Assembly: GCA_045579345.1 (NCBI GenBank)
Contig: JAZNMA010000098.1
Span: 19,943-83,942 of the forward strand
Source of the DNA: Christensenellaceae bacterium
GTDB lineage: Bacteria > Bacillota > Clostridia > Christensenellales > Borkfalkiaceae
Length of the DNA: 64,000 nucleotides
Reading direction: 5' to 3'
The notes under the pieces were generated by a model. It had not been told where the DNA came from, searched no databases, and saw only the letters and a program-made list of their open reading frames with translations. The position numbers and the translations under genes are program-made. Within the stretch, counting starts at the first letter, position 1; the number at the start of each line of letters is the position of its first letter. Positions 5,592 to 52,722 of this stretch are shown piece by piece.

Positions 5592-5777
5592 ATGGAAAGC
5601 GAAATTAAAGTAATAGATTATTTAATAGAAAATGGTGGTTGCGATTTGTGTGGAAAATGCGCATACTATATTCAAGCAAAAAAAGACGAAGATTTTACAC
5701 CTTGTAAAGAATTTGAGAAAGACGGAAACATTGCTTGCCGTAATGGTATGATTGAATATTTTAAGAACAATGAGTAA
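5592..5777 (+). CDS. small Cys-rich protein
   Basis: 61-aa ORF with CDLCGKC motif. Confidence 0.4.
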   Translation: MESEIKVIDYLIENGGCDLCGKCAYYIQAKKDEDFTPCKEFEKDGNIACRNGMIEYFKNNE

Positions 5778-6216
5778 GCAGATAAAGTCTAAAAAGAGAG
5801 TAAAGGAATTTGCCGAAGTTTATACAAACGAGCGTGAAGTTAAGGCTATGTGCGATTTAATACCAAAAGAAACTTGGGACAACATTGAAAGTGCTTTTTT
5901 AGAGCCTGCGTGTGGCAATGGAAATTTTCTTGTAGAGATTTACGCACGAAAATTAGAGCGTTGTAAAGACGAAAAAGACGGTCTAAAAGCACTTGCAAGC
6001 ATTGTTGGGATAGATATTCAACAAGATAATGTGGACGAAAGCCGATTAAGGTTAAGGTCAATGTTCCTTGATAAATTCCCAAATGCGAATACTTTTTGCT
6101 TATATATGTTGGCAACGATATTGTGCAATAACATAATTTGTGCCGATAGTTTAGCAAAAATGCAAGAGTGGATAGACCAAAATCAACCAAAACAATTAAG
6201 TTTATTTAAGGAGTAA
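5770..6216 (+). CDS. truncated N6-adenine methyltransferase-like protein (SAM-binding half only)
   Basis: VYTNEREVKAMCDLI (motif X-like) and FLEPACGNGNFL (motif I) are present. The protein ends shortly after IICADSL, with no NPPY/NPPF catalytic motif. Confidence 0.5.
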   Translation: MSKQIKSKKRVKEFAEVYTNEREVKAMCDLIPKETWDNIESAFLEPACGNGNFLVEIYARKLERCKDEKDGLKALASIVGIDIQQDNVDESRLRLRSMFLDKFPNANTFCLYMLATILCNNIICADSLAKMQEWIDQNQPKQLSLFKE

Positions 6217-8154: not shown

Positions 8155-8160
8155 TTGCAA

Positions 8161-8889
8161 ATGTTAAATAAATACTTAAACAAAATCACTTGTGGCGATA
8201 GTTATAAGTTGATAAAGGAATTGCCTGATAAGAGTGTTTCTTGTATTTATGTTGATATTCCTTACTTGTATGAAGCAGGTGGGGGGGGAAGTTCTCGCAT
8301 AGCACAACAAATTACTAAAATGAAAAAAGAACTGCAAAATTGTGGTATATGGGATGGAATAGATTATTCAATTTTTAATGACTTTGTTAGAGTATTAAAA
8401 AATATTAACTGTTTTATATGGTGTAGTAAAGAGCAAATTTATCCCATAATGAAGTGGTGGAACGAAAATACCGATTGCACTTATCAAATATTGACTTGGA
8501 ATAAAACTAACCCTGTGCCTATGTGCAATGGTAATTGGTTAAGCGATATAGAGTATTGCCTATATTTTAATAGGGGAACTAAACTAAATGACGGAATAGA
8601 ACACAAGTCAAAATGGTTTACAAGTTCGCTAAATGTTAAAGATAAAGCATTATTCAACCACCCAACTATAAAGCCATTAGAACTTGTCAAAAGGCATTTA
8701 TTGCATACAACGCAACCAAACGATATAGTGCTTGACTGTTTTATAGGAAGTGGCACGACTGCCGTTGCTTGTCAAGAAACTACTAGGCAATATATTGGGT
8801 TTGAAATTAGTGAAAAGTGGTGCAAGGTCGCAAACGATAGGTTAAATAAAGTTGATGCAGGCGGACAAACTTGCATGTTTTTAAGATAA
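8161..8889 (+). CDS. DNA methyltransferase, beta class (N6-adenine or N4-cytosine)
   Basis: Motif IV variant VDIPY lies N-terminal and motif I FIGSGTTAVAC lies C-terminal. A TTG at 8155 is an alternative start. Contains a G8 run at 8281-8288. Confidence 0.85.
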   Translation: MLNKYLNKITCGDSYKLIKELPDKSVSCIYVDIPYLYEAGGGGSSRIAQQITKMKKELQNCGIWDGIDYSIFNDFVRVLKNINCFIWCSKEQIYPIMKWWNENTDCTYQILTWNKTNPVPMCNGNWLSDIEYCLYFNRGTKLNDGIEHKSKWFTSSLNVKDKALFNHPTIKPLELVKRHLLHTTQPNDIVLDCFIGSGTTAVACQETTRQYIGFEISEKWCKVANDRLNKVDAGGQTCMFLR

Positions 8890-39462: not shown

Positions 39463-40401
39463 TTATAATGCTCCGTCAAAAGCAAGGTTAATGCTGTTTG
39501 CTGATTTTGACTTGTTTAGTATGCTAACATAAATTTTTTCAGTTGTTGAGATGCTGGCGTGTCCAAGTGCGTTTTGTATATCACGCATTTCAATTCCCAA
39601 GTTATCCCAAAGCGATGCCGATGCGTGTCTTAATGCGTGTACACCTACTTCGTGTCCGCAACAAAGACGAGTGTATCTGTTTACAAGCCCTAAAAGTCCT
39701 GCACTTGAAAACGCTTTCCAAACCTTTCCGTTGGTGCTGTGTCCGTTCTCGTCAGCATCCGTTCCAAACAAATAATCGCAAGGGCTTAAATTTGATGGTC
39801 TAACGCCACTTTCAAGATATTCCTTGACAAGTTGTCGAGCAAGGGAAGGAAAAGCCACCAAACGCCTTTTATCGCCTTTTCCGTGCTTAATTTCAATGCA
39901 GTTGTTCTCAAAGTCTAACGCCGATAAGGGAAGTGTACGTAATTCGCTATTTCTCAAACCGACTTGTACTAATAATATCACAATCGCACGATTTCGTAAA
40001 GCAGTTTTACGGTCAATTCTCGGTGGAAGTTCCGTCAATAGCGTTTTTATTTCATCAAGCGACAATAAATCATACTCAATCTGTTCGGCTCTCGGTATCT
40101 CTTCTCGTTGAATAGGGTTGTGTTCAATCAACTTCATACGGATAGCCCACTCAAAAAAGGTGTGTAATACTGTTAGATAATAGCCTATGGTGTTTGATTT
40201 GATTTCAGTCTTGTACAACTCTGTACGGAAGTTTACAACCGTTATAGGCTGAATTTCGCCGTCTTGTTCAAGACTGTTTAAATAATCGCCAAACTTTTTA
40301 AGTATCATACTGTAAGATAAAATCGTTTTGTCGCTCTTTTTGGTTGACGGTAGGGTATTGATATACTGTTCAGCGTACTTTTGATATTCAATTCTGTTCA
40401 T
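39463..40401 (-). CDS. tyrosine recombinase (XerC/XerD-like phage integrase family)
   Basis: N-terminal SAM-like domain. Catalytic residues appear in LRNSELRTL (Arg), HALRHASAS (His-x-x-Arg) and LGHASISTTEKIY (His...Tyr). Confidence 0.9.
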   Translation of the reverse strand: MNRIEYQKYAEQYINTLPSTKKSDKTILSYSMILKKFGDYLNSLEQDGEIQPITVVNFRTELYKTEIKSNTIGYYLTVLHTFFEWAIRMKLIEHNPIQREEIPRAEQIEYDLLSLDEIKTLLTELPPRIDRKTALRNRAIVILLVQVGLRNSELRTLPLSALDFENNCIEIKHGKGDKRRLVAFPSLARQLVKEYLESGVRPSNLSPCDYLFGTDADENGHSTNGKVWKAFSSAGLLGLVNRYTRLCCGHEVGVHALRHASASLWDNLGIEMRDIQNALGHASISTTEKIYVSILNKSKSANSINLAFDGAL

Positions 40402-40914: not shown

Positions 40915-42645
40915 TTATTCTCCTGTAATTTGTAGTAATTCTTTTTGTTCAACAAGGTAGGCGCTTTGATTTTCATATATCTTGTTGTAGTTTTGTTCGT
41001 TTCCTGAAAACTCTTTGACGATTGCTTGTTCTTCGTTATTCATTTCGTGGTATGCTTTCTTGCCGTAAGACGGGGGAAGCCAACCTTTACGTTGAGAAGC
41101 AAACAAATTAAACTTGTCAAGCAAATCTTGATTTCTAAACTTAATATGGCAAGTGCCTTTTTTATAGAAAGTCAAGTTAAAGTGTTCGGTGTTTATATTT
41201 TTAGCGTTTCCATTATCAAAGTTTCTTTTTATTGTTCTTTCTAATAGTTCCATATCTTCTAAACCGCTCACGCCTTTTGCAAGATAGTTAAGCGTTTTGC
41301 TCATATCGGTAAGTTTATAAATAACTTCTCGGTCTTGTAATTCGTAAGTATAGCCATCAACTGTACAATAACCGCCAAATCCTGAACCGTGAAATTTATA
41401 ATTTTTTTCTTTGTGCCACGCTCCATAAAACGGAATTATAATTTTACTGTTCAACTTATGACCTTTATTCGTTTTCCAACCGTTATAGTAATGGATATTG
41501 TCGCAACCGTCGTATTGTGCGTATTTTGTAAACTCGGCAAACAAAGCAATAATTTCTTCTTCAATACCTTTTAAGGTCGCTCGTCTGTTTTCTTCCATAA
41601 GCATTAAAATATTATGTTCGTTAAGGTCGTAGTTCTTCATTTCGTCAAGACGAGAATTAAATTCGCTCTTTAATTTACTTGTAAGCCTTGCAGAAAACTT
41701 TGGATTGTCAAACAATGCTTTCCAATAGTAATATCTGCTTGTTTGTACAAAGTGGTTAAAATCGCAAACTTCTCCAAACAATGAAAGGGCAAAAGGTGCT
41801 TTTTCGTATTTGTTAGTAATAATATCACTAAATCTTGCGTTATATTCGGAAGTAAAAGCCGTATATTCTTTGAAAAAAGCAATTCCAGAATCTATCTGTT
41901 CGTTGTATTGTTTAACGTAAGCAGTTATCCAATCTAAGCCAAGATTTATAAGTTCGTGCTGTTCAGCAGTCTGTTCAGTTTCTATATGTATTTCTTTTGC
42001 CTTGTCAAGTTCTTCAAATACCTTTGAATTAAAGACAGAAGTAGGGGCTAACACGTCAACCCAAACAACGGCGATTTCTACGCCCGATATTCTTTCGCTA
42101 TCATAAGAGCAGAAAGCCTTTTCATAAAATTTAATTACGGCGTTATACTTATCTAACTTTGCTTTTAATTCCTTGCGTTTCAAACTGTATGGATTTCTAA
42201 TCGTTTCAGCGTTCAATATGCAAAGCACTCTACCGCCTAATTTTTCTTGCATTTTAATTGCTTTAAGTAGGTGTTCTTCGCCGTTCTCAAACGGTGGATT
42301 CATATAGATAAGGTCGTACTTCGTGTAGGTATTAAAAGTTAAAAAGTCGTTATAAACAACGGGGTAGTGCTTGTCTTTTAATATTGCTTGTAAGTTGCTG
42401 TCGATTTCGATACACTCGACTTTACAACGTGGGGTAAATCTCCAACTACTGCCCCAATATTCCCTTAAATACTCGGCAATGTCGCCTTTCCCGGCAGACG
42501 GTTCTAAAACTTTAATGTCATATTTGTGTTCGTCGCGGAAGCACTCAAATTGTTTACTAAAATCCATATCAATCTGTTCTAATAAAGATTTAGGGGTGGG
42601 GTAAAACTGCTTGTCTTGTTCAGTATAGTTAATAACTTTATTCAT
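40915..42645 (-). CDS. N6-adenine DNA methyltransferase (gamma class) with large C-terminal domain
   Basis: QFYPTP, VLEPSAGKGDI (motif I) and DLIYMNPPF (motif IV). The roughly 350-aa C-terminal extension resembles the DUF4942-type orphan methylases of phages and plasmids. A TTG at 42660 is an alternative start. Confidence 0.85.
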   Translation of the reverse strand: MNKVINYTEQDKQFYPTPKSLLEQIDMDFSKQFECFRDEHKYDIKVLEPSAGKGDIAEYLREYWGSSWRFTPRCKVECIEIDSNLQAILKDKHYPVVYNDFLTFNTYTKYDLIYMNPPFENGEEHLLKAIKMQEKLGGRVLCILNAETIRNPYSLKRKELKAKLDKYNAVIKFYEKAFCSYDSERISGVEIAVVWVDVLAPTSVFNSKVFEELDKAKEIHIETEQTAEQHELINLGLDWITAYVKQYNEQIDSGIAFFKEYTAFTSEYNARFSDIITNKYEKAPFALSLFGEVCDFNHFVQTSRYYYWKALFDNPKFSARLTSKLKSEFNSRLDEMKNYDLNEHNILMLMEENRRATLKGIEEEIIALFAEFTKYAQYDGCDNIHYYNGWKTNKGHKLNSKIIIPFYGAWHKEKNYKFHGSGFGGYCTVDGYTYELQDREVIYKLTDMSKTLNYLAKGVSGLEDMELLERTIKRNFDNGNAKNINTEHFNLTFYKKGTCHIKFRNQDLLDKFNLFASQRKGWLPPSYGKKAYHEMNNEEQAIVKEFSGNEQNYNKIYENQSAYLVEQKELLQITGE

Positions 42646-42723
42646 AAAATATTTCTCCAAATAGTGCTTGCCTTTCGGTCAAGTCTTATCTAATCTTTTT
42701 TAATTCGTTTATGTCTGCTAGAA

Positions 42724-47367: not shown

Positions 47368-47727
47368 TTAACAATAAACACAATCACCAGACGACCAACA
47401 AAAAACGCTTATTTGCTTGCGTGCCTTGCCAACTCTTAACGCCTTTTTTAAACTCTTGATGCGTTCGCTTATGTCGATATAAACAAGCCCAGAATCTACC
47501 CACACGCCACAATATAAGCCGTTTTCGTGGCTGATTCTGTTCAATACCTTTTCAACCGCTTTTTTAACTTCGTTTAACTTTTCAGCGTTTAGGGTGTAGC
47601 AATCTTTTTTGCTTACCTGATAGCCCTTTTTAAAGTTTACGCTTGCGCCGTTCTTGTCTAACGTTGCGCCACCGTTCGCGATGATACTTAAAATATCAAT
47701 TTGTTTTTTGCCGTTCGTTCTGTTCAT
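47368..47727 (-). CDS. hypothetical protein
   Basis: 119-aa ORF with GGAG upstream. Confidence 0.5.
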   Translation of the reverse strand: MNRTNGKKQIDILSIIANGGATLDKNGASVNFKKGYQVSKKDCYTLNAEKLNEVKKAVEKVLNRISHENGLYCGVWVDSGLVYIDISERIKSLKKALRVGKARKQISVFCWSSGDCVYC

Positions 47728-47918
47728 AGTTTTTTAATCTCCTATAAAAATTTTTTATTTTTTCGTTTTTCCGCTTGACTTTTTCCCGTTATTCAATTAA
47801 AATAATAAAAGAATAACGCAACAAGGACGGCGCGGAGTTTTCCGCCCTTGCTTTGGTTTTGCGTGTTTGTGTTTTGTTAATCGGTTTTAGTTTCTCAGGC
47901 TCAACCGATTAACTTTTT

Positions 47919-48059
47919 TTATTTGCTTATATATTCAAGCAATTTGACCACTTGCGAATCGGTAAACTGTTCTACAGTCTTTAAGTAGTCAATCAACTTG
48001 TTAAGCGTTGTATCGCTCATCAAGGTTGTTTCCTCCGTATTTTCTAATTCGTCCGCCAT
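47919..48059 (-). CDS. small acidic ORF (46 aa), first gene of the leftward block
   Basis: AAAGGAGG lies 8 nt upstream of the ATG at 48059; about 35 nt downstream of the leftward promoter. Confidence 0.45.
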   Translation of the reverse strand: MADELENTEETTLMSDTTLNKLIDYLKTVEQFTDSQVVKLLEYISK

Positions 48060-48096
48060 TTTTAAAGCCTCCTTTGTTGCTCTTTTTCATACTCTT

Positions 48097-48125
48097 ATTA
48101 TACCAAAAAAAACAAAAAAACACAA
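48097..48125 (-). promoter_or_regulatory. leftward promoter for the 38.5-48.1 kb block
   Basis: On the minus strand: TTGTGT, 17 nt, TGgTATAAT (extended -10). Confidence 0.5.
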
Positions 48126-48198
48126 GCAAATAACACTATTATTTTAAAAATTAATGCTTAAAATCGCAAGTATTTTACTAATGATTTTATACTTTTAA

Positions 48199-48231
48199 CC
48201 GTTGATAAATTGCAACGGCTTTTTTATATTC
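48199..48231 (+). terminator. plus-strand intrinsic terminator-like hairpin with no obvious upstream gene
   Basis: CCGTTG ataaattg CAACGG followed by CTTTTTTAT. Confidence 0.4.
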
Positions 48232-48971
48232 TGGCGGATAAAATAAGACCATCACGACAAGCAATAAAAGGCGACGACCTGGCGACCACGAAAAGCACAA
48301 CGACCGCCACAGATACCGAAAACGCCCCGACAGAGTACACGCCCAAAAAAACACTACCACAACGCAACAAGCACCCCGAACACGTCCGCCCTTTTCTTTT
48401 CCTTTTTTCTTTTATATATTTTCTTTTTTGCTTTTCTTTTAAAATTTTATTTTAGTACATTATTTTTAATTTAGTAATTTAAAAAAGTTTATAACTTTTA
48501 TTTTAGTTAGTTACTTTTAATTAAATATATAAAATTATTTTTATTTTAGTTATAAAGCACTTTTTAGCGTCGCAGTGTTCAAAAGCCTATAAGAGCCTAA
48601 AAACGCCATTAAAATCAGATAAGACAGCCGCACCTGGTAAAGGGTTAAAGCGTGTTTATTTTGGTTTAACTGTTTTAATAATTGTTAGTTATTGCAACAG
48701 TTAGAGCGTGGCGGGGTATTTTTTAACGCAAAAGGTAAGGAACGAAAGCCAGCGCGGGTATAGCAGTTCTTCACATACTCTCGTTCATAAAACAATCATA
48801 ACAATTAACTTTGTCTAATATTGTCTAATATTTTGTCCAAGTAATATAGATTTAATGTTTAATGGATAAAAAGTAATAAATGATAGGAAAGATTGTAAGT
48901 ATAGTGATAATATTTGTTAGCAAAGATGTCAATTTGATAGATTGTAGTGATAATTATGGTTTACGCTTTGG

Positions 48972-49000
48972 TTGACAATGTAGTTGACTTGTGATATACT
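48972..49000 (+). promoter_or_regulatory. rightward promoter P1
   Basis: TTGACA (48972-48977), 17-nt spacer, TGaTATACT (48992-49000). Confidence 0.55.
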
Positions 49001-49006
49001 TGAGTT

Positions 49007-49083
49007 ATAGAGTAAAAAGATAGATGGGTGTTTTTTTAAGGGAATGGCGTACTGCGTTGTTCCTTATTTTTTTGGTTGACGAT
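49007..49083 (+). ncRNA. candidate small RNA of about 75 nt (P1 to terminator)
   Basis: Promoter P1 is followed within about 40 nt by the hairpin AGGGAA ... TTCCTT and ATTTTTTT (49039-49083). No ORF or RBS in between. Confidence 0.35.
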
Positions 49084-49315
49084 AAAGGAGAAGAGAACAA
49101 AAGGTGACGACGACTTGGGGGATAGTTGATAGATATATAAGATTTACTTGACTTATAGTTGACTGTAGGTAGCATTTTGTATTATATGCAAGGTGCTTTT
49201 TCTATTTTAGGGGGTGGGGTAGTTTTTTAACCAAAAATTTTTTCGCTACGCGAAATAGATATTAGAGTATTATTTTGCGGGGGGCAAATCGGCGATATAG
49301 CGTTGACAAAAAATA

Positions 49316-49343
49316 TTGTAATTAAAACTTTACGTGGTATAAT
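49316..49343 (+). promoter_or_regulatory. promoter of the tRNA/tmRNA operon
   Basis: TTGTAA, 16 nt, TGgTATAAT (extended -10 at 49335-49343). Confidence 0.55.
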
Positions 49344-49494
49344 GTTAATATAAAAATCAAATTATAGGTTTTTTGCATATTAACCTACTCCAGTTTGATT
49401 TCGCAAAACCGTAAATTGTGATAACGGACCATACACAATTAGTTTGTCGGCTAAAGACAATATGGGCGATCTCGTTGTGTGCATCGCCTAATAT

Positions 49495-49579
49495 GACCGA
49501 TTAGTTTAGTGGTAGAACGCTTGTGTAGACATAAGGTGCTAGCAAGATTACAGGAGTTCGATTCTCCTATTGGTCGCCA
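49495..49579 (+). tRNA. tRNA-like gene with aberrant anticodon region (isotype undetermined)
   Basis: Acceptor GACCGAT/ATTGGTC, D arm GTTT-AGTGGTA-GAAC, T arm AGGAG-TTCGATT-CTCCT, and G-CCA end. There are 32 nt instead of about 22 between the D and T arms. Confidence 0.5.
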
Positions 49580-49586
49580 TATATCT

Positions 49587-49943
49587 GGGCTAGTAAAGGT
49601 TTCGATTAGTCAAAGATGGTTACAATTCCACAGGAGTGCTTACCGACCTAACGGTAGGAATTAAATTAAATGCAAAATTATTTGCAAGACCATCCGTTAA
49701 AGTTGCTGCGTAAATAGTAGTAATAGGATTCCAAAATAGGGAGTTTCTCGACAACCCTTGCGGATTAAAAAGAGAATAAGGTCAGACTATCTGTGGTGAC
49801 CTGACAATAACAACACGGAGAAAAGCGCTGACTGCTTTAAGGTCAGTGGTGGAGGATGAATCTAATTCGTTCCTAAAATTGTGGTATAGCGGTTGTAAAA
49901 GTATTTGATTAAGACAAGAGTTCAATTCTCTTCTGGTCCACCA
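49587..49943 (+). ncRNA. ssrA: tmRNA (transfer-messenger RNA)
   Basis: 357 nt. The 5' GGGCTAG pairs with the 3' CTGGTCC-A-CCA, including a G3:U70 wobble (the alanine identity element). GGTTTCGAT is a D-loop analogue (compare GGAUUCGAC). The 3' end is GAC-AAGAG-TTCAATT-CTCTT. An internal tag frame GCA..TAA at 49672-49713 encodes AKLFARPSVKVAA. Confidence 0.8.
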
Positions 49944-50165
49944 TACGACTTGATATGTCGGAAGGTTGTTAGTTTTCCTAAGCCGATTAAAATAAAACTA
50001 ACCGCTTTATGTGTTTCAAATCCTATACAGTGGTGAGTATAGGTTGTGAAAGAAATACGTCCCTGATGGCATAATCTCTTTGACTTACGGGGTTAGGGGT
50101 TTTATCAACCAAAGAATAAGAGAAGGGCGTTTTGCCCGGCAACACGGAAGGAACGCCGTGTGGTT

Positions 50166-50241
50166 GCAGAAATAGCACAATAGGTAGTGCAGTTGATTTG
50201 TAATCAACAGGTTGTCAGTTCGATTCTGTCTTTCTGCTCCA
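50166..50241 (+). tRNA. tRNA-Thr (anticodon TGT)
   Basis: 76-nt cloverleaf: GCAGAAA/TTTCTGC acceptor, anticodon arm GTTGA-TTTGTAA-TCAAC, TTCGATT T-loop, encoded CCA. Confidence 0.85.
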
Positions 50242-50387
50242 AAACCGTTTGTTTGTCTTTTCATTTTTTTGGGTAGAGAAAAGACTATTCCACGTCTGAA
50301 TGACGGTGGCGACGAATATTCTTCTTGCCGAGAATATTTCGTTGTGGATTTCCGCCGGGTAGGGGCAAGGGAACGCTCGGCATTTTT

Positions 50388-50463
50388 AGGGGAGTAGCCA
50401 AGTGGTTAAGGCAACGGACTTTGATTCCGTCATTCGTAGGTTCAAATCCTTCTTCCCCTGCCA
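50388..50463 (+). tRNA. tRNA-Gln (anticodon TTG)
   Basis: 76 nt: AGGGGAG/TTCCCCT acceptor, anticodon arm ACGGA-CTTTGAT-TCCGT, TTCAAAT T-loop, encoded CCA. Confidence 0.8.
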
Positions 50464-50468
50464 AATAT

Positions 50469-50544
50469 AGCAGATTAGAGAAGCGGCTATCTCGCTTGGC
50501 TCATAACCAAGAAATCGCAGGTTCGAGTCCTGCATCTGCAACCA
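50469..50544 (+). tRNA. tRNA with CAT anticodon (Met; fMet or Ile-lysidine not excluded)
   Basis: 76 nt: anticodon arm CTTGG-CTCATAA-CCAAG, T arm GCAGG-TTCGAGT-CCTGC, A1:A72 mismatch at the top of the acceptor stem, encoded CCA. Confidence 0.8.
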
Positions 50545-50569
50545 AAAATAATTTAATGGGGGATTTACC

Positions 50570-50893
50570 ATGAATGGTTTTTTAACCGCTATTACATCTT
50601 TTGCTCGTTGGTGTACGGATAAAATACTTATTCCTGTGTTTGGAAAAGAGTATTGGGGGCAATACTATGGGATTTTTTTGTTTGTTCTTTTTGTTCTTTT
50701 AGTTGCCGCCATCGTTGTTTTGAGTATAATATTGAAAAAAACAATTATTAGGTATAAATCTAAAGTTTCATTTTTAAGAAAAGAATTAAACGATGCGTCT
50801 AATGAATGTCAAAAAAAGAATGATATGATTATTGAATTAAAGAAAAAACTTTTAGTCAAAGAAGCAAAAAGTGAAAAAAGAAAAAAGAGATAA
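50570..50893 (+). CDS. small membrane protein with C-terminal coiled coil
   Basis: 107 aa. One strong TM helix (GIFLFVLFVLLVAAIVVLSIIL), GGGGA upstream. Confidence 0.5.
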   Translation: MNGFLTAITSFARWCTDKILIPVFGKEYWGQYYGIFLFVLFVLLVAAIVVLSIILKKTIIRYKSKVSFLRKELNDASNECQKKNDMIIELKKKLLVKEAKSEKRKKR

Positions 50894-50898
50894 ATTAA

Positions 50899-51168
50899 GT
50901 GAAAGCAAGCAAAAGTTTTTTAAGAAAATATTCTAAACGAATTAACATAAATTGCTGTAGGCATAAAGGCAGTCCTATAATCAAATATCAAATAGGGTAC
51001 ATAGGATTAAGATGCTGTAAAGTAGCAATTTGCCTTGATTGTGAACAAAGGCAAGTAATTTGTCGTGGTTTTGCAAAATGGTTATTAGTACATTTTGTAC
51101 AAACAAAAACAAGGCGAATTAACATTCTTTGCGTTGTGACAAATCAAGAGATGTTTCTATATAGGTGA
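50899..51168 (+). CDS. doubtful ORF (GTG start, Cys/Arg-rich); may instead be the regulatory region of the XRE gene
   Basis: No convincing RBS. The region contains palindromes (TTGCCTTG..CAAAGGCAA, TTTGTACAAA). Confidence 0.2.
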   Translation: MKASKSFLRKYSKRININCCRHKGSPIIKYQIGYIGLRCCKVAICLDCEQRQVICRGFAKWLLVHFVQTKTRRINILCVVTNQEMFLYR

Positions 51169-51171
51169 AAA

Positions 51172-51537
51172 ATGCAAGAAAATAGTATAAATAAAAATCA
51201 AAATTCTGAAACAACGTGTTTTAATGAGATTTTTTCAAAACGTCTTCGTCGTTTAAGATTAGATAAAGACCTTAAATGTGTTGAAGTTGCACTAGGAACA
51301 AGTTTGAGCCATACGGCAATACTTGGATATGAAGATGGTAGTCAATTACCTAAAATGGATTCACTAATAAAATTAGCGGATTTTTTCGATGTGTCTATTG
51401 ATTATTTAACTGGTAGGACCGATTTAAGGCGACTGCCTAAAGAAATAGATATTTTAATGCTTGAAAGCAAATTGTTAGAACTTGGTTCTTACGCTGAACA
51501 GTTTAAGCAAGACCTTTCAAGACGAGAAGAAATATAA
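51172..51537 (+). CDS. XRE-family helix-turn-helix transcriptional regulator
   Basis: FSKRLRRLRLDKDLKCVEVALGTSLSHTAILGYEDGSQLPKMDSLIKLADFFDVSIDYLTGR is a typical HTH_3 domain. Confidence 0.85.
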   Translation: MQENSINKNQNSETTCFNEIFSKRLRRLRLDKDLKCVEVALGTSLSHTAILGYEDGSQLPKMDSLIKLADFFDVSIDYLTGRTDLRRLPKEIDILMLESKLLELGSYAEQFKQDLSRREEI

Positions 51538-51662
51538 TTAATTGTGTCCAAAACTTTCTCCTATATAATAAAGTTTTTTAAACAAAAACGGCTTTCAAAA
51601 TGAAGGTCGTTTTTGTTTGACTTTTAAAGTAAAAAGTCTTAAAATTTAATTGTAAGAATTTT

Positions 51663-51704
51663 TAGTAACAATTTTTAGTAACAAAATACACAAATTAGTA
51701 ACAA
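51663..51704 (+). repeat. three direct repeats of TAGTAACAA (51663, 51676, 51696)
   Basis: Read directly. Located between the XRE gene and tRNA-Trp. Candidate recombinase arm-type or operator sites. Confidence 0.6.
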
Positions 51705-51778
51705 AACCCACTAAACAAAATAAAGAAAAACGCCATTTTTCAACTAAAAATAGCCAAAAAACAGCGTTTTTTTGATGT

Positions 51779-51854
51779 TGGCAGGGGAGACGCGACTCGA
51801 ACACGCAACCGGCGGTTTTGGAGACCGCTGCTCTACCAATTGAGCCACTCCCCT
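51779..51854 (-). tRNA. tRNA-Trp (anticodon CCA)
   Basis: The reverse complement gives AGGGGAG..CTCCCCT acceptor, GCGGT-CTCCAAA-ACCGC anticodon arm, GTTCGAGTC T-loop and encoded CCA. Confidence 0.9.
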
Positions 51855-51912: not shown

Positions 51913-52722
51913 ATGAAAAAGAAATTTAAATTAGGTGTAATTGGTGCAGGGTTTATGGCAACAGCTATAATTAAAGGGGCTATTGCAGGAAAAGTTATAA
52001 ACGCCTCAGAAATTATTGTTAGTGACGTAAATCAAATATCGCTAGATAAAATATCTAAAATAGGCGTTGAGGTCACCATGAATAACGTTGAACTTGTTGA
52101 CCAAGCCGAATATGTTTTATTTGCAGTAAAACCACAAAATTTAAATGAATTATTAATTGATATAAAAAGTTGTTTATCTAATTTAAAATTTATTTCGATA
52201 ATGGCTGGTGTTAAAAAAGAAAAATTTAAGAAAGTATTTCCAAACTCTAAGATAGCGAGATGCATGCCTAATACGCCTTGCAGTATTGGTGCTGGAGCTG
52301 TGGGATTAGACGCTTCTGACTTTACCGATAAAAACGACGTAGATTTTATTAACGCTTTATTATCTTCGTTTGGTACAGTTGTAGAGGTTGAAGAGGATAA
52401 ACTCGGTGCGGTTACAGGAGTTAGTGGCAGTTCTCCAGCATATTTTTATTTATTTCTTAAAGGTGTTATTGATGCTGGGGTAAGCCAAGGGCTTTCTTAC
52501 GAACAAGCAAGACTGCTCGCAACTAGTACAATGATTGGTGCCGGGAAAATGGTTGAAAAAAATCCTGAAAAATCACTAGATGAATTAATAAATGCTGTTT
52601 GTAGTAAAGGCGGAACAACAATTGAAGCAATTAAAGTTTATCAAAATAACGATATTAATAAAATAACAAAAGAGGCTCTTGACGCATGTGTAAAAAGGTC
52701 GCAGGAGTTGGAAAATTTATGA
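51913..52722 (+). CDS. proC: pyrroline-5-carboxylate reductase
   Basis: LGVIGAGFMATAIIKG Rossmann start, CMPNTPCSIGAGA, SGSSPAYFYLF motifs. Confidence 0.9.
   Translation: MKKKFKLGVIGAGFMATAIIKGAIAGKVINASEIIVSDVNQISLDKISKIGVEVTMNNVELVDQAEYVLFAVKPQNLNELLIDIKSCLSNLKFISIMAGVKKEKFKKVFPNSKIARCMPNTPCSIGAGAVGLDASDFTDKNDVDFINALLSSFGTVVEVEEDKLGAVTGVSGSSPAYFYLFLKGVIDAGVSQGLSYEQARLLATSTMIGAGKMVEKNPEKSLDELINAVCSKGGTTIEAIKVYQNNDINKITKEALDACVKRSQELENL

Follow-up and report, generated by a model that had tools for sequence, protein, structure and literature searches.

A 64,000-nucleotide (nt) stretch of contig JAZNMA010000098.1—hereafter the window, to which all coordinates refer—holds a gene for a one-piece transfer-messenger RNA (tmRNA) at 49587–49943 on the plus strand. 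With a probability of roughly 75%, we interpret it as the intact and probably functional tmRNA of a temperate tailed phage whose integration site is the tRNA-Trp gene of its host, an uncultured Christensenellaceae-type Clostridia bacterium. ARAGORN calls a one-piece tmRNA at exactly this interval, 357 nt long including the encoded CCA, with the tag peptide AKLFARPSVKVAA followed by a stop and the coding part at gene positions 86 to 127 (window 49672–49713). The Rfam covariance model RF00023 matches the same interval over the whole model (1–374) at 59.8 bits (gathering score 47 bits; E 7e-21 for the whole window). Both calls agree with an earlier reading of this DNA (the original prediction), which had recognized the hallmarks of tmRNA here, and ARAGORN returns the same internal frame that had been proposed (49672–49713, GCA...GCU GCG UAA). 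The overall reading offered at that time—a genuine phage-borne tmRNA and not the ssrA gene of the host—is supported by the analysis that follows.

How complete is the gene? The canonical helices (i.e., helix 1, helices 2a to 2c, pseudoknot [PK] 1, helix 5, PK2 to PK4, and the T arm) can all be drawn with full complementarity, and none is broken. The 5' half of the tRNA-like domain (49587–49605, +) consists of the acceptor strand GGGCUAG, which supplies G3 of the G3:U pair, and the D-loop analogue UAAAGGUUUCGA; this half is identical in the one other copy of the gene, on contig L001. The 3' half (49916–49943, +), read from the sequence and from RF00023, contains the T arm AAGAG-UUCAAUU-CUCUU, the acceptor strand CUGGUCC, the discriminator A, and CCA. 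The two acceptor strands form 7/7 pairs, the 3' strand lying at 49933–49939, and the third pair is G3:U (G3:U70). All of the end features previously claimed for this RNA—the acceptor pairing with its G:U third pair, the A and CCA, the D-loop analogue (GGUUUCGA), and the T arm—are therefore readable in the sequence. Helix 2 is made up of three segments, each fully complementary. By complementarity, PK1 (49632–49658, +) is a hairpin, CUUACCG/CGGUAGG, whose loop CCU pairs with an upstream AGG, and three further pseudoknots fall within 49738–49872 (+): PK2 (AGGG/CCCU and UUCUC/GAGAA), PK3 (GGUCA/UGACC and CUGUG/CACGG), and PK4 (CGCUGACU/GGUCAGUG and GGAUGAAU/AUUCGUUC).

The tag frame (49672–49713, +), identical in L001, runs from a GCA resume codon in the context UAAAU-GCA, with U(-5) and A(-4) before it, through 13 sense codons to a UAA stop. 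The stop sits in the loop of the 8-bp helix 5 (GUUGCUGC/GUAGUAAU, 8/8 paired; 49702–49724, +). U85 and A86 of Escherichia coli are the equivalents of U(-5) and A(-4), and A86 is the main frame-setting nucleotide (PMC2481249). As far as can be judged from the sequence, the known determinants of tmRNA function are all present: G3:U70, the ACCA end, the T arm, U(-5)/A(-4), and the stop in the helix 5 loop. The model for two-piece (permuted) tmRNA, RF04321, also matched at 49522–49713, with 39.7 bits against a threshold of 47. We rejected this match because it is below threshold and is a composite of the 3' half of an upstream tRNA-like gene and the 5' half of the tmRNA, whereas the one-piece model covers the whole gene.

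The tag AKLFARPSVKVAA has a net charge of +3 and no acidic residues, lacks Asp, Glu, and Asn altogether, and ends in ...KVAA-COOH. It had been described before as basic and noncanonical, and this description holds: the composition is unlike that of ANDENYALAA-type tags, and the hydrophobic-Ala-Ala end is retained. SsrA tags with a ...VAA end are known from Caulobacter. A basic residue near the terminus also occurs in a working tmRNA, that of Helicobacter pylori, whose tag ends in ...KAA (PMC2862035). There, as in the ...KVAA of the phage tag, the basic residue lies close to the C-terminal Ala-Ala; the rest of the H. pylori tag is polar or neutral, however, and its gene is chromosomal. With its departing composition and retained Ala-Ala, the phage tag could reveal which tag features matter in Firmicutes-type hosts.

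The copy on L001 lies in the same phage context, with flanks 96.7% identical to those in the window and a tmRNA that is 97.8% identical and scores 60.6 bits against RF00023. Eight substitutions separate the two genes: one in the PK1 loop (position 64, A to G) and seven in PK2 to PK4. The tRNA-like domain, helix 2, the tag frame, and helix 5 are free of changes, a split of 1/208 nt versus 7/149 nt (Fisher p = 0.01). Four of the substitutions are in predicted stems, and pairing is kept in 4/4 (C-G to U-G, U-G to C-G, C-G to U-G, and G-U to G-C). This pattern is as would be seen for a working tmRNA, but with two near-identical sequences it is only suggestive.

Integration at tRNA-Trp and sibling phages

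Does the gene belong to the phage or to the chromosome? The window spans a prophage-host junction, with phage DNA from position 1 to ∼51.8 kb. The phage part encodes DUF5131, DUF1064, a single-stranded DNA-binding protein, and DNA methylases by Pfam, together with a weak YopX-like match below the Pfam cut-off, and portal, tape measure, and tail genes lie at 12 to 36 kb (PHROGs). A minus-strand block then carries a 312-amino acid (aa) tyrosine recombinase and a large methyltransferase. The interval from 47.7 to 50.5 kb is a gene-poor RNA region of the prophage, and beyond it lie small open reading frames (ORFs) and an XRE-type helix-turn-helix (HTH) regulator gene (51172–51537, +), the last phage gene before the right attachment site, attR.

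Window 50388–51795 is matched at 96% identity by the metagenomic contig L002, which comes from a public sequencing run; beyond the 17-nt sequence TGGCAGGGGAGACGCGA the contig departs into the C terminus of a tyrosine integrase on the other strand, and this junction is the attP of the excised or free phage. We assign attR to 51779–51795 from this attP junction and from the 17-mer, which forms the 3' end of tRNA-Trp in the host. The core occurs once in the window, recurs in tRNA-Trp at 11 related host loci, and in 21 related phage contigs lies downstream of the HTH gene. The integration target is tRNA-Trp(CCA) at 51779–51854 (−), whose 3' end abuts the right end of the prophage. The tmRNA gene is placed 1.85 kb inside attR, and phage DNA common to related contigs flanks it on both sides: a 119-aa gene (47368–47727) to the left and the tRNA-Thr/Gln/Met array and HTH gene to the right. 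The original prediction had put the tmRNA between phage genes and considered it phage-borne, and both the mapping of the attachment site and the restriction of host genes to positions from ∼51.9 kb onward are in line with that.

The chromosomal genes begin at 51913. By Pfam they comprise proC, RNase H, DedA/VTT, SurE, an HI0933 flavoprotein, cmk, an acyltransferase, and an ispH-S1 fusion, and the host stretch also includes spoIIIAA, AB, an AC/AD-family gene, AE, and AF. The ispH-S1 protein shares 64 to 81% identity with proteins encoded by metagenome-assembled genomes from gut and rumen that are labeled Christensenellaceae, Clostridia, or Clostridiales. Eight related genomes keep the order tRNA-Trp(−)-proC-RNase H-DedA-SurE to the right, while their left-hand genes differ and do not match the phage genes of the window, except for one weak hit. 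Neither a tmRNA nor a tRNA array is present to the left of tRNA-Trp in any of the eight, and for this reason the tmRNA is not a conserved chromosomal gene of the locus. Conservation of the gene at this locus in prophage-free relatives would have pointed to a host ssrA; what we found instead was eight genomes without a tmRNA there. Three related host genomes contain an extra copy of the 17-nt core ∼123 nt from the tRNA-Trp 3' end (L005:3164–3180, L017:1183–1199, and L019:4133–4149); earlier integrations at a hot spot seem to have left them behind as scars or small remnants.

Using homologues of the HTH protein as a handle, we retrieved 25 further contigs of one phage family, which share a common layout, the attP core, and the tRNA-Thr(UGU)/Gln(UUG)/Met(CAU) array upstream of the HTH gene. 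Sibling phages are ordered HTH–attP–381-aa integrase–repressor/cro–replication on contigs of 55 to 62 kb, and from the related contigs we judge the phage genome to be ∼60 kb. The tmRNA is absent from all 16 related phage contigs that span its position (ARAGORN on 16, Rfam on 7). In the three closest siblings, L073, L070, and L072, the empty site is exact: the tRNA-like gene ends ...GGTCGCCA and is followed directly by TACGACTTGATATGTCGGAAGG..., L072 having GCCACCA at the tRNA-like end and one base different in the TACGACTTGATATGTCGGAAGG stretch. In the window, TATATCT comes between the tRNA-like gene and the 357-nt tmRNA, whose end is ...GGTCCACCA, and TACGACTTGATATGTCGGAAGG... resumes directly after it. 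Alignments with these three siblings therefore delimit a 364-nt segment (49580–49943, +), made up of the 7-nt spacer TATATCT plus the tmRNA and bounded by the microhomology CCATA. This segment is present in the window phage and L001 only; the tmRNA is thus found in 2 of the ∼18 related phage contigs covering the site. On parsimony, the difference would be a gain in the lineage of the window phage, although a microhomology deletion in the sibling phages instead is conceivable.

How widespread is this tmRNA outside the family? A blastn search of 50,697 phage records returned no match to it, and 1.2-kb and 24-kb queries matched only tRNAs. An exact 20-mer and two 18- to 21-mers of the tRNA-like domain had 0 matches in IMG/VR, and a gapped pattern for both ends of that domain had 0 matches in 185,579 species genomes. 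A pattern for its 3' end matched nine times in JGI metagenomes, in every case a tRNA-Ala(UGC) within a phage-like tRNA array and never a tmRNA. When the exact sequences of the 312-aa recombinase, proC, and the 119-aa protein were looked up, none was on record, and protein-based IMG/VR scans with the portal protein and with proC retrieved no relatives.

Proposed function and competing explanations

How might such a gene act? The tmRNA would be cotranscribed with the adjoining tRNA-like gene, and perhaps also with the downstream tRNAs. RNase P would cut its 5' end, the 3' end would be trimmed to the encoded CCA, and the alanyl-tRNA synthetase of the host would charge it with alanine via G3:U70. 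Host SmpB and EF-Tu would bind the charged RNA, SmpB presumably coming from the host because the window encodes none: the Pfam scan found no SmpB (PF01668) among 50 window ORFs, including all neighbors of the tmRNA, with the large head and tail ORFs covered by PHROGs only and some small head-tail ORFs outside the scan. The tmRNA had been described as not lying next to smpB, and indeed no neighbor matches PF01668. Once delivered to a stalled ribosome, the RNA would let translation resume at GCA (49672), add (A)AKLFARPSVKVAA, and end at the UAA in the helix 5 loop, and the ...VAA-COOH end would direct the product to ClpXP-type proteolysis. The benefit would be extra or host-independent ribosome rescue while the phage runs the cell. 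Such a benefit fits the dependence of some temperate phages on trans-translation: lambda-immP22 plates 10^4- to 10^5-fold worse without it, and what is needed is ribosome release, not tagging (PMC2481249, PMC2862035).

Several observations weigh against an intact, working phage tmRNA. The score of 59.8 bits is modest, with low posterior probabilities across PK2 to PK4 in the RF00023 alignment; a score this low means that the sequence is divergent. Structural support is thin because there are only two copies, 97.8% identical, and the four pair-preserving changes between them are transitions, with no true double compensatory change. The composition of the tag is atypical, and the case for recognition by host proteases comes solely from the terminal VAA. 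No smpB lies near the gene, so its function would depend on the host SmpB accepting its tRNA-like domain. Both attL and the true integrase lie beyond the left end of the window. Finally, any benefit of the tmRNA cannot be essential, because most sibling phages do without the gene.

Some of these points would also fit a decaying or nonfunctional tmRNA, a hitchhiking relic of past recombination that, transcribed or not, has no role in trans-translation. The modest model score and the atypical tag are consistent with decay, as are the presence of the gene in just 2 of the ∼18 related phage contigs covering the site and the state of the adjoining tRNA-like gene, which has itself lost a normal anticodon loop. 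A relic is nevertheless unlikely in our view: G3:U70, ACCA, the T loop, A(-4), and the in-frame stop in the helix 5 loop are intact, every helix is unbroken, and the substitutions in L001 spare the tRNA-like domain and the tag and keep the pairing.

Could the gene instead be a specialized phage tool? It might serve counter-defense, acting with the phage tRNAs to relieve the ribosome stalling that host nucleases provoke by cleaving tRNA or mRNA, or its basic tag might give rescued proteins another fate than the host tag does. The tmRNA does share a small-RNA region with phage tRNAs and an aberrant tRNA-like RNA, its tag is unlike common tags, and sibling phages carry Abi genes as cargo next to attP; moreover, it has been proposed that phage tRNAs replace or evade the tRNAs that host anticodon nucleases target (PMC10264068). 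All of this is purely circumstantial, however. The end of the tag is still the degradation-type VAA, the host part of the window yielded no defense system, and siblings with the same tRNAs lack the tmRNA, which together leave a specialized role quite improbable. An extended version of the idea, to which we give an equally small chance, is that the 364-nt cassette is a recently acquired mobile accessory of the small-RNA region (tRNA-like gene, tmRNA, and tRNA-Thr/Gln/Met), with the region acting as a counter-defense or takeover kit. The tmRNA would then clear ribosomes that stall when host immunity cleaves tRNA or mRNA or when the phage induces mRNA decay, and the fate conferred by the basic tag would differ from that of the host tag. 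The natural sibling pairs that have and lack the tmRNA would allow a direct test of this idea.

Least credible of all is that the gene is the host's own ssrA, with the prophage beside or integrated into it: ssrA is a common attB for tyrosine integrases (PMC10865867, PMC9004378), and the status of the phage tmRNA as a second copy in addition to a canonical host ssrA is putative, but the att core is the 3' end of tRNA-Trp and not of the tmRNA, conserved phage DNA lies on both sides of the gene, related host genomes have no tmRNA at the locus, L001 holds the same gene in a phage context, and no smpB adjoins.

How does the phage tmRNA at this site compare with known systems? Genes for tmRNA have been reported in 402 of 18,146 phage genomes (2.3%, 133 distinct), with upkeep of the hijacked translation machinery or tagging of host proteins as proposed roles (PMC9004378), and huge phages carry tmRNAs, sometimes together with SmpB (PMC7162821). 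The phenomenon is therefore already documented, and the original prediction was right to call phage tmRNAs rare (402/18,146; PMC9004378). The window gene resembles the reported cases in being a complete gene in a phage genome, as these usually are near phage tRNAs and presumed to serve translation upkeep during infection. The literature cited here, however, describes such genes in a lytic marine myophage with a two-piece tmRNA under a riboswitch and in huge phages possibly with SmpB, whereas the present one is a one-piece gene in a ∼60-kb temperate phage of a gut or rumen anaerobe with no smpB found. It also differs in being present or absent among near-identical siblings and in having no blastn match in the 50,697 phage records. 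Compared with bacterial one-piece ssrA (RF00023; E. coli and Bacillus subtilis), the gene has the full architecture from the tRNA-Ala-like domain to PK4 and a tag that ends in hydrophobic-Ala-Ala, but it is carried by a prophage, does not lie beside smpB, and is divergent in sequence; its tag is basic (+3) without Asp, Glu, or Asn, in contrast to common tags (ANDENYALAA, for example), which are neutral or acidic. Prophage ends often carry fragments of ssrA, since ssrA frequently serves as attB (PMC9004378, PMC10865867), and these fragments too associate tmRNA-related sequence with a tyrosine-integrase prophage. Those fragments are short 3' duplications at attL or attR, and we rejected this explanation here: the present gene is complete and stands 1.85 kb away from attR, and it is tRNA-Trp that supplies the att core.

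The gene is thus a further case of a known class, phage-encoded tmRNA, and not a new kind of thing. Its distinctive features are the small temperate phage of a Christensenellaceae-type host, the basic tag, the lack of a similar sequence in the searched collections, and the exact presence/absence polymorphism. The gains ascribed to phage tmRNAs in the cited literature are proposals, and the host lineage (Christensenellaceae-type Clostridia) is abundant in gut and rumen and poorly studied. A fitness effect could be measured cleanly here, because near-identical siblings differ by exactly the tmRNA cassette (the window and L001 versus L073). The insert, exactly at the CCA end of a tRNA-like gene, is also a concrete example of RNA-gene shuffling in phage tRNA arrays. 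The current understanding of trans-translation is unchanged by the finding, which provides an experimentally tractable case.

Neighboring RNA genes and other features of the prophage and its siblings

The tmRNA has the same orientation as a tRNA-like gene (49495–49579, +) 7 nt upstream and three tRNAs downstream, and no terminator-like site was found on the plus strand between these genes. The downstream array (50166–50544, +) consists of Thr(UGU) at 50166, Gln(UUG) at 50388, and Met(CAU) at 50469 and is conserved in related phages; together with the tRNA-like gene, it shows that the colinear phage-type tRNAs noted in the original prediction are real. The promoter noted alongside them fared less well. 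A consensus match, TTGTAA-16-TATAAT extended by TG (49316–49343, +), does precede both the tRNA-like gene and the tmRNA, but a promoter is not demonstrated by it, as the scan of the region found 20 promoter-like sites versus 14.4 ± 5 in shuffled sequence, no excess.

The tRNA-like gene encodes its CCA and is normal in its acceptor, D, and T arms; where a normal anticodon arm would be, folds show a long hairpin. It scores 49.9 bits against the Rfam tRNA model with 17 nt where 7 are expected, and is labeled "tRNA-???" with a 2-base anticodon by ARAGORN. Homologues occur at L073:1143–1224, L070:822–906, and L072:951–1035, and across this family the ARAGORN label is "tRNA-???" with a 2-base anticodon, Ser(GGA), or nothing. 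The sequence of the replacement hairpin varies by phage while its self-complementarity is kept: CUUGUG-UAGA-CAUAAG in the window, CUUUA.GGAA-GAAUA-UUCCUAAAG in L073, and CCU.CUAUGG-8 nt-UCCGUA.GGG in L072. The gene probably does not decode.

Upstream of these RNA genes, the ∼1.8 kb from 47728 to 49494 contains no convincing ORF, several terminator-like hairpins, and no Rfam match. Blocks at 48096–48187 and 48645–48792 are 70 to 80% conserved in distant siblings, and 48637–49165 is ∼82% conserved in closer ones; the region may hold uncharacterized phage noncoding RNAs or regulatory sites. The spacer before tRNA-Thr (50060–50165) shows strong conservation between the window and L073 and partial conservation in L070; it contains CTTACGGGGTTAGGGG and a hairpin, CACGGAAGGAACGCCGTG, and may be a structured leader or processing element.

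The 312-aa tyrosine recombinase (39463–40401, −; PHROG integrase, E 2e-43) lies far from attR. We rejected this integrase-like gene as the integration enzyme because the siblings carry it internally and have a separate 381-aa integrase beside attP; the same internal position is kept in all sibling phages, and the protein may have a role in dimer resolution or as an invertase. The prophage also encodes a 244-aa N6_N4_Mtase (8155–8889, +), a 581-aa protein with methyltransferase PHROG hits (40915–42660, −), and a weak methyltransferase-like ORF (5752–6216). These methyltransferases probably have antirestriction functions.

Other small-RNA features appeared in the contigs that were compared. The nine tRNA-Ala(UGC) matches from JGI metagenomes (contigs L040 to L048) lie in dense arrays of up to 16 tRNAs in 2.4 kb. 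The slot between the HTH gene and the integrase, which holds no cargo in the window phage, carries an abiF RNA motif above the Rfam gathering score in two siblings: L064:5405–5441 (−), just upstream of an Abi_2 gene, and L049:10783–10819 (−), beside an unannotated 142-aa gene. Finally, nine sibling phage contigs (L049:9619–9694, L050:9622–9694, and L051 to L057) have, at the position of tRNA-Met, a tRNA with the 8-nt anticodon loop CUUCAUUC and the "anticodon" UCAU, versus CUCAUAA. Found repeatedly in independent assemblies, it has the look of a tRNA of the quadruplet or frameshift type, or else of a variant in the anticodon loop.

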